Notes: generated from the letters alone by a model not told the origin. 64,000 bases of DNA from an uncultured Bacilli bacterium (GCA_934086185.1 CAKOHW010000004.1:47318-111317), one strand, 5' to 3'. Shown: positions 50,883 to 54,616, counted from the stretch's first letter. Numbers and translations are program-made.

Positions 50883-52574
50883 TTAAATTAGTGGGTTAAA
50901 ATTATTTATTGCATCTATTAGTTTAGGGTGTCTTATAACAAAATGTATTATTGGATTATTACCCTTAGATATAATTATATAGTTATTTAATACACTTGTA
51001 ACATTTATATTTTTAAATGTACGGTTATTATTATTTATAATTTTATAATTTTTATTATTTTTAGAATAATTAATAGTATCGTTATAATGATTTATATATT
51101 CTTCATATGTATATTTAATGTGTTTATTATAAAAAATATTTTCTAAAGATAAATATATGTTTTCTTTTTTAAAATCATCATTATTTAAACTATATATAGT
51201 ATCAGTTATAGTATTTGTTTTTAAAATATTTTTTATATTGTTAAATTCAATATTTTTATATTCTAATATTTTATTTATATCTTCTTCATTTATATTATTT
51301 CTTTTTAGTATTTTAATTAATAGAGTATCATTTATTGTAAATAATGGTAGAGAAGATAATATTCTTTTTCTATCTTTTTTTATGTTGTTATCTTTATTTA
51401 AGAATGTATTATAATCATTAATATTTTCTTCTTTATATATGTCCATTAAAGAATTAGATTTATTTAATAATAGTCTTGCTTTTTCTTTATAATATTCTAA
51501 TTCTTTTTTATTATTAGTTAAATAGTATTTTCCTTTATTATGGTTATTTTTTATACATTCTCCTGTTAGTGCACATGAAGATGATACATAGTTTAAGTGA
51601 TAATATATAGTATTTTTTAAATCTTTAAAATAATATGGAGATACTTGACCAGTCATATATATTGGTATCCAACTAATTAAACCTAACATCATTTCATTAT
51701 ATGGTCTATCTAAATTATGTATTATATTTAAATGTAGGCCTTTTTTTAAACTAAGTGCTATACCAAACATCCATTTTTTACCGAATTCTAAATCTTTAGC
51801 CATATCTTCCATAGGCATATCACTACACATAAATATATCTCCATGATTTTTAGATAAAACAGTTCCTTTAAAGAAATCTAATTCTCCTTTTTTCATTTCT
51901 TCTATACCATAATAAGTTTTAGTTTTTATTATATAGAATGGAATATTTGGTACTTTTAATTCATCAAATTTAATAGATTTAATATAATCATTTAAATCAA
52001 ATGTATCTAATACTTTTAAAAAATTATTTGTTTCTTTTTCTTCGTCTATTTTATTAGTTAATATCCATTCTTTTATATTGTCTATAGTTATGTCATTATT
52101 TAATAATTTTTTTAAAGTAGAATAATTTTTTTCATTATTATATTTTTTATATATGAAGTTAGATAATGAATTTATAAATTCATGTTTATTAGATGGTATT
52201 CTATTACCTGTTTTAATTTTAGATAAATATGATGCGTCGTAATTTAAATAATTAGATAATTCTTTAGCACTTATATTAAATGTATCAATTAATATATTTA
52301 AATTGTTTTTTATTATATCAAAATTTAATTCAGAATTATTTAATACATTATTAAATTCATTAAATATATCTTCTTCTTTATATTTATTATTAGATAGTGT
52401 AGATAGAGAAGAACTTAATACTTTTAATGTTTCTTTATTAGGTATTCTTGATGCATTTCTATATCTACTTATAATAGATTCGGATAAATTAGATTTTTGT
52501 GCTAATTCTTTAGATGTACATTTTATTAATCCTATGTATTTGTTTAAAATATCATTAAATTCCATAATTCTCAC
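50883..52574 (-). CDS. Large (563 aa) putative transcriptional regulator with two XRE-like HTH motifs and an unknown C-terminal domain
   Basis: ELAQKSNLSESIISRYRNASRIP and AKELSNYLNYDASYLSKIKTGNRIP are helix-turn-helix-like; divergent from the MALIKC/PrsW pair. Confidence 0.4.
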   Translation of the reverse strand: MRIMEFNDILNKYIGLIKCTSKELAQKSNLSESIISRYRNASRIPNKETLKVLSSSLSTLSNNKYKEEDIFNEFNNVLNNSELNFDIIKNNLNILIDTFNISAKELSNYLNYDASYLSKIKTGNRIPSNKHEFINSLSNFIYKKYNNEKNYSTLKKLLNNDITIDNIKEWILTNKIDEEKETNNFLKVLDTFDLNDYIKSIKFDELKVPNIPFYIIKTKTYYGIEEMKKGELDFFKGTVLSKNHGDIFMCSDMPMEDMAKDLEFGKKWMFGIALSLKKGLHLNIIHNLDRPYNEMMLGLISWIPIYMTGQVSPYYFKDLKNTIYYHLNYVSSSCALTGECIKNNHNKGKYYLTNNKKELEYYKEKARLLLNKSNSLMDIYKEENINDYNTFLNKDNNIKKDRKRILSSLPLFTINDTLLIKILKRNNINEEDINKILEYKNIEFNNIKNILKTNTITDTIYSLNNDDFKKENIYLSLENIFYNKHIKYTYEEYINHYNDTINYSKNNKNYKIINNNNRTFKNINVTSVLNNYIIISKGNNPIIHFVIRHPKLIDAINNFNPLI

Positions 52575-52721
52575 CTCTATTTATAATAACATATATATTA
52601 TTATTTTAAATAAATTTACTTAATAGTCATTGACTTTTTTGTAAACTATCTTTTAAATTAGTTGCTATTATAATATACTTTATTTAGTAATGCAATAGTA
52701 TATTAATAGGAGTGTGGTTAT

Positions 52722-53462
52722 ATGGCATTAATAAAGTGTCCTGAATGTAAAAATAACATAAGTGATAAAGCAGAAAAATGTCCTAAGTGTGGTTATGAAT
52801 TAAATGGGAATAATAATAGTAGTGAGAGTAAAAAAATAAAGGGTAAAATAGATTATAAATATGTATTAATTGGTTTATTAATTTTGATAGTTGGTTTTTA
52901 TATGTTAAATCAAAGAAACAATACAAATACTGGTAGTGGTGGTACTGGGGATAATCCTACAACTAATCCATCTAATCCAACTACTCCAGTAGAAACTACA
53001 CCTGGAACAAATAGTGGTTATGTTGTATATAACGATACTAATTTAGGAGTTAGCTATGAAATACCTAGTGGTTATAAGACTTTTACTGGTAGTGATGGAT
53101 TAACTTATGTTGGTAAAAATATAGATGATCAAGGAGCTTTAATTCCATATATATTATTATGTTGGGATGAAGGTTATAATAATCCTACTCAATATTTAAA
53201 TGCTTTTACTAATGAGTTAAGGAAAAATTATAGTGATGTTACTATTACTATAGATATGCTTTCTGGTAATGTAGGTAGTTATTTAGTTTATGGAATTCAA
53301 TATATGTATACATCTAGTGGACATATAGTAGTAGATAATAGATATGTAACTGTTATTAATAATAAAATATTTATGATAGGTACTAGAGAAGAAAATACTA
53401 ATAGTAAAGAAATAAATGATATAGTAAATGTTATGTTTAATACATTAAAGGGAGGTAAATAA
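52722..53462 (+). CDS. MALIKC zinc-ribbon membrane protein with an extracytoplasmic domain
   Basis: MALIKCPECKNNISDKAEKCPKCGYEL double zinc ribbon, one TM, a Thr/Pro/Gly-rich linker, then a folded domain. Confidence 0.5.
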   Translation: MALIKCPECKNNISDKAEKCPKCGYELNGNNNSSESKKIKGKIDYKYVLIGLLILIVGFYMLNQRNNTNTGSGGTGDNPTTNPSNPTTPVETTPGTNSGYVVYNDTNLGVSYEIPSGYKTFTGSDGLTYVGKNIDDQGALIPYILLCWDEGYNNPTQYLNAFTNELRKNYSDVTITIDMLSGNVGSYLVYGIQYMYTSSGHIVVDNRYVTVINNKIFMIGTREENTNSKEINDIVNVMFNTLKGGK

Positions 53463-54616
53463 TGGCTTTAATTAAATGTAAAGAGTGTGGCGAAAGTATT
53501 TCAAGTAATGCTAAATCTTGTCCTCATTGTGGTTTTAAAAATGATGTCAAGATATGTCCAGAATGTGGCAAAAAGGTAAAAGAAAGTGATATTAATTGTC
53601 CTAGTTGTGGTTATCCTTTACAAAAAAAGAATCCTACTAATGTAGTAGCTGAAAATTTAGATAAAATAACTGGGGCTAAATCAGAAAGTTATGTAACTTT
53701 TAAAGATTTATTTAAAAATACATTTAAGAAACATACTGAAAAAGATTTAGATGATGTGTTTGTATGTGGTAGTGATGCTACTACTCCAGATGTAAAAGAT
53801 ATTAATCCCAAAAATGCTAGTGCATGGGTATATTTAAAGATATTTATATTTTTCTTGATTGCTTATGTTGCACTTCGTATTGGATATATAAATTATGGAA
53901 ATGAAAATTCTTTACCAGGTTTGATAATGCTTGGTGCATTTGCTATGCCAGTAACAGTATTAATATTTTTCTTTGAAATCAATGTGTTTAAAAATATACC
54001 ATTTTATAAAGTTTTAAAATATTTTATATTAGGTGGTGCATTAAGTTTAATACTTGCATTATTATTCTTCTCACTTGATATTAATACAGATATAAGTACT
54101 TATAATGGGGCTTTAATGGTTGGAGTAATTGAGGAAATACCGAAAGCTACAATAGTTGCATTATTCTTGTTTAAAAATAAAAAATGTAATTATATATTAG
54201 ATGGTTTATTAGTAGGTGCTGCAGTAGGTGCTGGATTTGCTGCTTTTGAAACTGCTGGTTATATTTTAAGAAATGGTATAAGCGGTGGTATAAATATGAT
54301 GTTATATGTAATAAAGTTAAGAGGATTTTTAGCACCAGGAGGACATGTTGCTTGGGCTGCTATAGAAGGTGCGGCATTAATGTATGTTAAAGGTTTTGAA
54401 CCATTAGATAAAAAACATTTAAATGATAAAAGATTTTTACTTATGTGTTTAATACCAATAATATTGCATGGTATATGGGATATGCCAATTTCATTACCTT
54501 ATTGTGGTATACCAATTATTCTTACTATACTAGCATGGTTAGTAATTATATATTATATAAATTTAGGTTTAAAACAAGTTGATGATGCTAAGAAGTTAGC
54601 AGCAAATAAAAAATAA
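53462..54616 (+). CDS. Zinc-ribbon plus PrsW-family intramembrane metalloprotease fusion
   Basis: Two zinc ribbons (CKECG...CPHCG; CPECG...CPSCG), then a polytopic domain with PrsW motifs EEIPK, FAAFETAGY and HGIWD. Confidence 0.6.
   Translation: MALIKCKECGESISSNAKSCPHCGFKNDVKICPECGKKVKESDINCPSCGYPLQKKNPTNVVAENLDKITGAKSESYVTFKDLFKNTFKKHTEKDLDDVFVCGSDATTPDVKDINPKNASAWVYLKIFIFFLIAYVALRIGYINYGNENSLPGLIMLGAFAMPVTVLIFFFEINVFKNIPFYKVLKYFILGGALSLILALLFFSLDINTDISTYNGALMVGVIEEIPKATIVALFLFKNKKCNYILDGLLVGAAVGAGFAAFETAGYILRNGISGGINMMLYVIKLRGFLAPGGHVAWAAIEGAALMYVKGFEPLDKKHLNDKRFLLMCLIPIILHGIWDMPISLPYCGIPIILTILAWLVIIYYINLGLKQVDDAKKLAANKK

Follow-up and report, generated by a model that had tools for sequence, protein, structure and literature searches.

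Three adjacent genes at positions 50883 to 54616 of a 64-kb stretch of DNA from an uncultured Bacilli bacterium (CAKOHW010000004.1:47318-111317; hereafter the window, meaning the whole 64,000 nucleotides) encode a zinc-ribbon-bearing intramembrane protease of the PrsW type (PRSW), a membrane partner made of a ribbon, a transmembrane (TM) helix, and an ectodomain (PART), and a divergently transcribed regulator with two helix-turn-helix (HTH) domains (HTH563). On balance, we favor the view that these genes form an envelope module found throughout an RF39-like lineage, in which PART and PRSW are coupled, PART serves as a sensor or gate or as the first substrate of the protease, and HTH563 and an operator exert control. 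A further ribbon protein, isl205, lies on a mobile island elsewhere in the window and is treated separately below. The features of the module, in window coordinates, are as follows.

50883 to 52574, minus strand: HTH563, cytoplasmic (open reading frame [ORF] table, Pfam, AlphaFold2 [AF2] model); two XRE-type HTHs at about residues 5 to 60 and 85 to 145, a helical linker, and a C-terminal alpha/beta region at 219 to 557
52615 to 52645, no strand: dyad operator, 31 bp, center 52630, between the divergent genes
52652 to 52657, plus strand: weak -35-like TTTAAA (consensus scan, TTTAAA-16-TATACT)
52674 to 52679, plus strand: candidate -10 box TATACT of the PART-PRSW promoter, 44 nt past the operator center
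52722 to 53462, plus strand: PART, 246 aa (ORF table, Pfam, AF2, TM prediction); C4 zinc ribbon at residues 1 to 28, basic linker, TM helix at about 43 to 63, disordered T/P/G/N-rich juxtamembrane linker at 64 to 98, and PsbP/Mog1/DcrB-like domain at 99 to 246
53447 to 53464, plus strand: translational-coupling junction of PART and PRSW (sequence reading and ORF table)
53462 to 54616, plus strand: PRSW, 384 aa (ORF table, Pfam, NCBIfam, hydropathy scan, homologue alignment); two cytoplasmic zinc ribbons at residues 1 to 55, cytoplasmic linker at 56 to 119, and eight-TM PrsW-type core at 120 to 370

PART and PRSW are a conserved, translationally coupled pair

The window has a GC content of about 23%. 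The proteins that it encodes recur as exact copies on contigs from human-gut metagenomes, and metagenome-assembled genomes labeled uncultured Bacilli, 'Tenericutes,' or Mycoplasmatota contain close relatives; we infer that the host clade is an RF39-like lineage of gut Bacilli and use that name for it. A species-level scan, with one genome per species, recovered at least 108 PRSW relatives at 66 to 87% identity. Eighty of these loci were kept, and their neighborhoods were compared over +/-6 kb by tblastn and all-against-all ORF clustering.

PART (40 to 67% identical) lies immediately 5' of PRSW on the same strand in 76 of the 80 species-level loci, and related loci show the same head-to-tail arrangement. 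The PART TAA stop and the PRSW ATG overlap by 1 nt as TAATG, and the GGGAGG ribosome-binding site (RBS) of PRSW is embedded in the final codons of PART (…K-G-G-K). No further flanking gene family is common to more than 23 of the 80 loci, the remaining neighbors being shuffled. No sigma or anti-sigma family was found among the conserved neighbors within +/-6 kb in the 80 genomes, nor was a site-2 protease linked to the locus. PART and PRSW stand out as a tightly conserved, translationally coupled pair.

PRSW is predicted to be an intramembrane protease with a complete active site

Residues 182 to 363 of PRSW match PF13367 (PrsW) at 101 bits, against a gathering cutoff of 23.5 (E = 8e-29), and the match covers profile positions 4 to 193 of 196. 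E224, E225, and K228 (EEIPK), E263 (FAAFE), H295, and H336 and D340 (HGIWD) are invariant among 12 homologues at 77 to 100% identity. A preliminary description of this DNA had proposed that the last of several proteins beginning MALIKC is fused to a PrsW-type protease, and the profile match and invariant motifs bear this out. The PrsW motif set has been defined as EExxK in TM helix 3, a histidine in TM helix 5, and HxxxD in TM helix 6 (PMC4602095). A Kyte-Doolittle scan, a crude predictor, gives seven strong segments plus a less hydrophobic helix carrying H295; the resulting eight fit the eight-helix core described for the family in PMC3482391. Only 14 residues follow the last TM helix, and there is no C-terminal toxin domain.

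Against the NCBIfam PrsW equivalog model NF033739, PRSW scores 53.1 bits and does not reach the cutoff of 225; because it falls so far short, we regard it as a member of the PrsW family and not as the orthologue of Bacillus subtilis PrsW. Its catalytic residues nonetheless align with EE..K, FATLE, the TM5 histidine, and HGSYD of the B. subtilis protein (E = 3e-9, about 23% identity in the core). Residue numbers in the B. subtilis reference should be taken as a lead rather than a result. The alignment of the PrsW motifs with catalytic residues holds, and the mismatch that the preliminary description had named as fatal to its proposal did not appear. Judged by sequence, PRSW is a genuine member of the PrsW protease family whose catalytic motifs are intact; it is predicted to be a glutamic intramembrane endopeptidase of the PrsW type, with a complete predicted active site and a conserved cytoplasmic N terminus. 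A search of solved structures with the PRSW sequence returned only zinc-finger and eL37 noise and no PrsW structure.

The cytoplasmic N terminus is conserved to about the same degree as the protease itself: 76% for ribbon 1, 74% for the linker, and 77% for the catalytic core. Residues 6 to 50 comprise the two ribbons and match Pfam DZR. The linker that follows (residues 56 to 119, window 53627 to 53818; ENLDKITG…YVTFKDLF…; ENLDKITGAKSESYVTFKDLFKNTFKKHT…) is conserved like the catalytic core and has no match in the profile libraries searched. It looks like an unrecognized conserved cytoplasmic element of this PrsW subfamily.

PART carries a PsbP-like domain that is predicted to face the envelope

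TM prediction and the AF2 model agree that PART has the same kind of ribbon as PRSW, one TM helix, and an extracytoplasmic domain, as the preliminary description had stated. The TM predictor places the helix at residues 43 to 61. The only Pfam match is Zn_ribbon_3, a C4 zinc-ribbon type, with nothing outside the ribbon. In the AF2 model, the ectodomain has a predicted local distance difference test (pLDDT) score above 90 and the linkers fall below 50, and the ectodomain superposes structurally on members of the PsbP/Mog1/DcrB-like family. One PART orthologue has a precomputed Pfam match to PF18933 (PsbP_2) described as 'faint'; the PART of the window lacks it. The model predicts a type II bitopic, N-in protein, with the ribbon in the cytoplasm and the PsbP/DcrB-like domain outside. 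All 253 database matches to the PART family come from this lineage, and conservation is 80% in the ribbon versus 54% in the ectodomain.

A divergent double-HTH regulator and a dyad operator accompany the pair

HTH563 is transcribed divergently from the pair. Database copies are 560 aa long and start three codons later, and the true start is likely the ATG at 52565. Residues 20 to 55 match Pfam HTH_3 (E = 9e-9), an internal repeat aligns residues 10 to 80 with 92 to 160 (30% identity, E = 3e-5), and the AF2 model (pLDDT 79) contains two helical bundles, all in agreement with the earlier reading of a 563-aa divergent protein with two XRE-like HTHs. No TM segment is predicted. The C-terminal region resembles the TrmB effector domain, with a predicted PLD-like fold; sequence identity to the TrmB family is 7 to 10%, and there is no Pfam TrmB match. 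An RNPP-type (TPR) peptide sensor was considered and rejected: the C terminus is alpha/beta and PLD/TrmB-like, not TPR, and ComR and PrgX match through the HTH alone. At the extreme end of the PLD-like domain (residues 544 to 557, window 50883 to 50930), an invariant H549-x-K551 (…IRHPKLIDA…) may be the remnant of an HKD motif.

HTH563 is divergent from the pair in 37 of 80 loci at 41 to 68% identity, and these loci are spread over the full range of PRSW identity. Reciprocal lookups from three HTH563 homologues found PART-PRSW adjoining in two and, in the third, only a gene of a family that we call c4 (described below).

The 31-bp dyad between the divergent genes reads TTTAC-TTAATA-GTCA-T-TGAC-TTTTTT-GTAAA, that is, TTTAC-N6-GTCA-T-TGAC-N6-GTAAA. 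The window contains a single copy of its core, GTCANTGAC, where 0.13 copies would be expected. In 938 kb of DNA from related loci, it occurs 29 times, with 27 copies lying within 300 bp upstream of PART; 8 of these 27 are in loci without an adjacent HTH563. Generic palindrome scoring upstream of PART was noisy, and a strict center-anchored dyad test was used instead; it detected 30 operon-upstream instances, which come from 29 loci, versus 8 in the other ~920 kb. Divergent species carry the variants TTGTCGG…AAAACATTGTTTT…CCGACAA or TTTCCGAtTTGGCAaTTGCCtAtTCGGAAA, in which the sequence is altered and the dyad is kept.

The position of the dyad relative to the candidate promoter is also fixed. 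TATACT or TATAAT starts 44 nt past the dyad center (43 nt in two) in 30 of 30 operon-upstream instances, versus 0 of the 8 look-alike dyads elsewhere. In the window, the operator ends just 5' of the weak -35 element, its center lying at about -56 if transcription starts ~7 nt after the -10 box, and it overlaps the -35-like ATGACT of the putative promoter of HTH563 itself. This geometry suggests that the operator serves to activate the operon and to autorepress HTH563. The outer and inner half-sites are ~10 bp apart; we infer that a dimeric regulator binds here, and this spacing would suit two HTHs per chain. Divergent synteny in 37 of 80 loci, together with a conserved dyad operator of fixed promoter geometry, supports a link between HTH563 and the pair.

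The c4 family (~366 aa, an N-terminal TM helix and an ectodomain) accompanies HTH563, PART, and PRSW in ~10 species; examples are L060:7185-8285, L064:4131-5234, and L094:3759-4841, with about 7 more loci. It is missing from the window. Where present, c4 lies between HTH563 and PART (15 to 25 bp from PART) or 3' of PRSW. In loci with the inserted gene, the operator remains before c4, which becomes the first gene of the operon, and in L094 c4 is the sole gene divergent from HTH563, with the same operator present. The c4 gene probably belongs to the regulon as well. No match to c4 was found in Pfam, NCBIfam, or PHROGs. An hhalign comparison of the PART ectodomain with c4 gave 27% probability over 25 columns, and we claim no homology.

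The MALIKC start is a widely shuffled zinc-ribbon module

The preliminary description had noted that isl205, PART, and PRSW all start MALIKC-x-EC…CP-x-CG, and each is an ORF at the coordinates listed here. Their N termini have in common M1, A2, L3, I4, K5, C6, E8, C9, I13, S14, A17, C20, P21, C23, and G24. The similarity ends after 24 to 41 residues. A 30-column profile built from the three window ribbons was searched against 50%-identity cluster representatives and matched 39,389 of them at E <= 1e-3 and 2,152 at <= 1e-10, in proteins of 65 to 2396 aa, mostly at residues 1 to 28. The retrieved ribbon sequences begin MALIKCPECG..ISDKA..CPNCG and then run into unrelated regions. Among 86 ribbon representatives searched against Pfam, only zinc-ribbon families were common, the rest being scattered (WG repeats, DUF805, L7/L12_C, and others), and all three window ribbons match the N termini of the same 7 PHROG families.

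Likeness among the three ribbons therefore does extend beyond CxxC spacing to flanking residues, but the same residues recur in tens of thousands of other proteins, and there is no private MALIKC family. The idea of a distinct family of that kind gives way to a profile-based reading in which MALIKC is the consensus of a huge, promiscuous, and widely shuffled N-terminal zinc-ribbon module. Three proteins of ~310 to 330 aa (P0445, P0453, and P0473) carry a double ribbon close to that of PRSW (MALIKCKECGKEISDKAKVCPHCGFENN..ICPECKKEI…CPNCGYEI) on a different multipass membrane region, which indicates that shuffling among membrane proteins extends to the double-ribbon head.

Within this lineage the picture is more restricted. 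Across 896 ORFs flanking the operon in the 80 genomes, an N-terminal CxxC…CxxC ribbon is present in PART and PRSW only and in none of ~740 others; three such ribbons in 64 kb are above the local background. Each of the two proteins also has a ribbon signature of its own across species, CPKCGYEL in PART and CPHCGxKN in PRSW. Strong purifying selection indicates that these ribbons matter for function, and their rarity in these genomes and strong conservation in both proteins make a real cytoplasmic function likely.

Weighing the proposed mechanism

In the mechanism that we favor, PART would be a dedicated sensor or gating subunit of PRSW and perhaps its first substrate, in the manner of SpoIVFA toward SpoIVFB or of RsiW toward PrsW. 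Its ectodomain would recognize a ligand or protein of the envelope, its disordered juxtamembrane linker would offer an accessible cleavage region, and the cytoplasmic ribbons of both proteins would either tether the two to each other or bind a cytoplasmic factor that they share. An HTH563 dimer, with two HTHs per monomer, would most likely bind the four-part 31-bp operator, use its TrmB/PLD-like C-terminal domain to sense a small-molecule effector, and, when bound, activate the operon and repress its own gene. Several observations weigh against this proposal. Co-transcription by itself does not prove a PART-PRSW complex, and both the contact and the cleavage of PART are proposals. The PsbP-like fold is functionally promiscuous, occurring in immunity proteins, chaperones, lipoprotein factors, and photosystem subunits, and specifies no ligand. 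HTH563 is missing from the immediate neighborhood in 39 of the 76 loci; that it binds the operator is deduced only from synteny, and another regulator could bind there. The promoter consensus scan by itself is uninformative at 23% GC (47 sites versus 46 expected), and the choice of activation over repression is a guess.

PRSW might instead perform quality control or maturation of envelope proteins as a housekeeping task, with PART co-transcribed and nonregulatory and the operator and regulator merely tuning expression to growth conditions. This would explain why PRSW is 66 to 87% identical and apparently universal in at least 108 small-genome species, a conservation that suggests a core function; CPBP/Rce1 relatives, which belong to the same superfamily, have roles in protein maturation (PMC4602095), and the locus has no identifiable signaling output. 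However, across the clade PART and PRSW stay strictly adjacent, with the 1-nt overlap and the RBS inside PART preserved, while every other neighbor changes; both proteins retain a conserved cytoplasmic ribbon, and a dedicated operator of fixed geometry points to a specialized, regulated module. We consider a housekeeping role unlikely. A different proposal keeps signaling through proteolysis but dispenses with sigma factors: the PART ribbon would sequester HTH563 or another factor at the membrane, site-1 cleavage of the extracytoplasmic part of PART by PRSW upon an envelope signal would release the regulator, and the ribbons would be shared docking modules. PART does resemble RsiW in topology, with the N terminus inside, a cytoplasmic head that binds metal, a single TM helix, and an ectodomain. 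Its juxtamembrane linker is disordered, its ribbon is its most conserved part, and regulator, partner, and protease share a conserved three-gene synteny; B. subtilis PrsW is the site-1 protease for RsiW (PMC4602095 and PMC3482391). Yet HTH563 has its own putative TrmB/PLD-like effector domain, like a one-component sensor, and therefore would not need a membrane relay. The operator is kept before PART-PRSW in 39 loci that have no regulator next door, HTH563 is paired with c4 alone in L094, the PART ribbon is a generic C4 ribbon and not a zf-HC2 anti-sigma domain, and the locus has neither a sigma or anti-sigma gene among its conserved neighbors nor a linked site-2 protease. Such a release mechanism seems to us quite unlikely. 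The preliminary description had read the locus as a possible regulated-proteolysis signaling circuit modeled on RsiW. What remains of that reading is a conserved and regulated protease module (the pair in 76 of 80 loci, and the operator); the analogy to RsiW itself is not borne out, with no linked sigma or anti-sigma gene, a C4 rather than a zf-HC2 ribbon, and 53 versus 225 bits on the equivalog model. The analysis likewise gave no support for the ribbons as docking modules.

The island ribbon protein isl205 is unrelated to the pair

37562 to 38179, minus strand: isl205, 205 aa, outside the module; cargo of an integrase-bearing mobile element

The island contains a tyrosine integrase (41448 to 42614; phrog_1, 3.7e-73), excisionase-like HTHs, and XRE repressors, and it adjoins a tRNA-Arg gene (35988 to 36064). 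On other contigs, isl205 keeps its XRE repressor, excisionase-like, and integrase neighbors, and the outer flanks differ. The protein has a generic N-terminal zinc ribbon, a soluble domain of ~130 aa, and a C-terminal TM hairpin, a topology unlike that of PART. Direct repeats in 35900 to 43300, inspected for the island ends, were AT-rich chance pairs only, and a blastn-short comparison of the tRNA-Arg 3' end with the island found no attachment-site (att) copy, only one inverted 18-mer with 2 mismatches. Just 3' of the integrase, at 42738 to 42812, lies a tRNA-like 3' fragment (…GGTCGGCAGTTCGATTCTGCCCGGGGACACCA; T-arm, acceptor 3' strand, and CCA) on which ARAGORN and Rfam make no call; it may be an old or alternative attachment site.

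The preliminary description had taken the island copy for a paralogue of PART and PRSW and a candidate mimic or decoy that could plug into their pathway through its ribbon. The shared start invites this idea, the isl205 ribbon being identical to PRSW ribbon 1 at 19 of 24 positions (over 28 residues, 19 of 28 to PRSW and 17 of 28 to PART), and such ribbons are otherwise rare in these genomes. However, the similarity stops past the ribbon, within the 24 to 41 residues noted above. The same ribbon matches unrelated proteins at 24 of 28 positions, and among the 150 best representatives at least 57 share 19 positions or more with it, which makes them as close to it as PRSW or PART are, or closer. 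Its generic CPNCGCPI lacks the cross-species signatures of both PART and PRSW, and ribbons of its type head at least 8 phage protein families, with matches to the N termini of 8 PHROG families. The topology differs from that of PART, and the gene is fixed in an integrase element beside the element's repressor. We regard a mimic or decoy as extremely improbable. On sequence grounds, isl205 is best described as an unrelated mobile-element protein with a generic ribbon, not a paralogue of PART or PRSW.

Other neighboring genes

A 611-aa, N-terminally anchored protein is encoded 3' of PRSW (54890 to 56725) and has a paralogue ~47 kb upstream (7596 to 9731; 40 to 56% identity in two segments). Neither has a Pfam, NCBIfam, or PHROG match. 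The gene was left out of the module because its synteny is found in only 2 loci. A few kilobases upstream of the module, 44310 to 45479 encodes a multi-TM GGDEF (diguanylate cyclase) protein, by a Pfam match taken from an identical contig, and no synteny was seen for it in other species.

Relation to known systems and significance

The nearest characterized relative of PRSW is B. subtilis PrsW (YpdC; PF13367, MEROPS M82), the RsiW site-1 protease, which has the same catalytic family, motifs, and ~8-helix core. Unlike that protein, PRSW has an additional cytoplasmic N terminus of ~120 residues with two zinc ribbons, a dedicated co-translated partner, and no sigW- or rsiW-like genes nearby; the two are ~23% identical in the core, and PRSW scores 53 against the 225 bits required by the equivalog model. 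The locus is predicted to work like a PrsW-type protease and is not a PrsW/RsiW/sigma-W system. Zhang, de Souza, Anantharaman, Iyer, and Aravind (2012; PMC3482391) describe PrsW fused to zinc-ribbon, PilZ, cNMP, and FHA domains and predict that zinc-ribbon-PrsW fusions are signaling peptidases that cleave proteins on signals sensed by the fused domain. PRSW belongs to this class, with an N-terminal intracellular zinc ribbon (residues 1 to 55), a PrsW core (182 to 363), and no toxin domain. PMC3482391 lists only the architecture; the partner, the regulator, and the operator of the present locus do not come from that paper. These three elements, namely the dedicated PsbP-like partner, the regulator with two HTHs and a TrmB-like domain, and the operator, appear to be new, the fusion class itself having been known since 2012.

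The arrangement of the pair recalls SpoIVFA-SpoIVFB of B. subtilis, in that a polytopic intramembrane protease is encoded directly 3' of a bitopic protein with an extracytoplasmic domain; gating of PRSW by PART is proposed by this analogy. SpoIVFB is a site-2 metalloprotease, the ectodomain of SpoIVFA is LytM-like, and neither has zinc ribbons, whereas PRSW belongs to a different protease family, PART is PsbP-like, and ribbons are present. In its overall plan, a C4 ribbon at the N terminus followed by a single TM helix and an extracellular domain, PART also resembles Staphylococcus aureus TcaA. The match to NCBIfam TcaA covers only the ribbon (residues 5 to 39; E = 1.5e-4, 20.8 bits versus a cutoff of 550), and the ectodomains are unrelated. 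TcaA is not known to pair with a PrsW protease. HTH563 differs from the archaeal TrmB/TrmBL2 sugar regulators, to which it is 7 to 10% identical, in having two XRE-type HTHs and no winged helix.

PrsW-family proteases are widespread, with a known substrate only for the sigma-W pathway and a few relatives, and the zinc-ribbon-PrsW fusions predicted in 2012 to be signaling peptidases had no assigned partners. The locus described here provides a compact and testable module for one such fusion, comprising the protease and the bitopic partner translated with it, together with a candidate regulator and an operator at a precisely fixed position. Recognition that the MALIKC start is generic also guards against reading ribbon matches as paralogy or mimicry. 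In a bolder version of the pathway, which we consider very unlikely, the three proteins would act independently of sigma factors, the PsbP-like domain of PART sensing an envelope signal, PRSW cleaving, and the ribbons of PART, PRSW, or both relaying the outcome to operator-binding HTH563; if true, transcription in a major lineage of uncultured gut bacteria would be coupled to a PrsW-type protease in a new way. The module is kept in more than 100 species-level genomes of this abundant, uncultured lineage of the human gut, and it might be rebuilt in a heterologous host.

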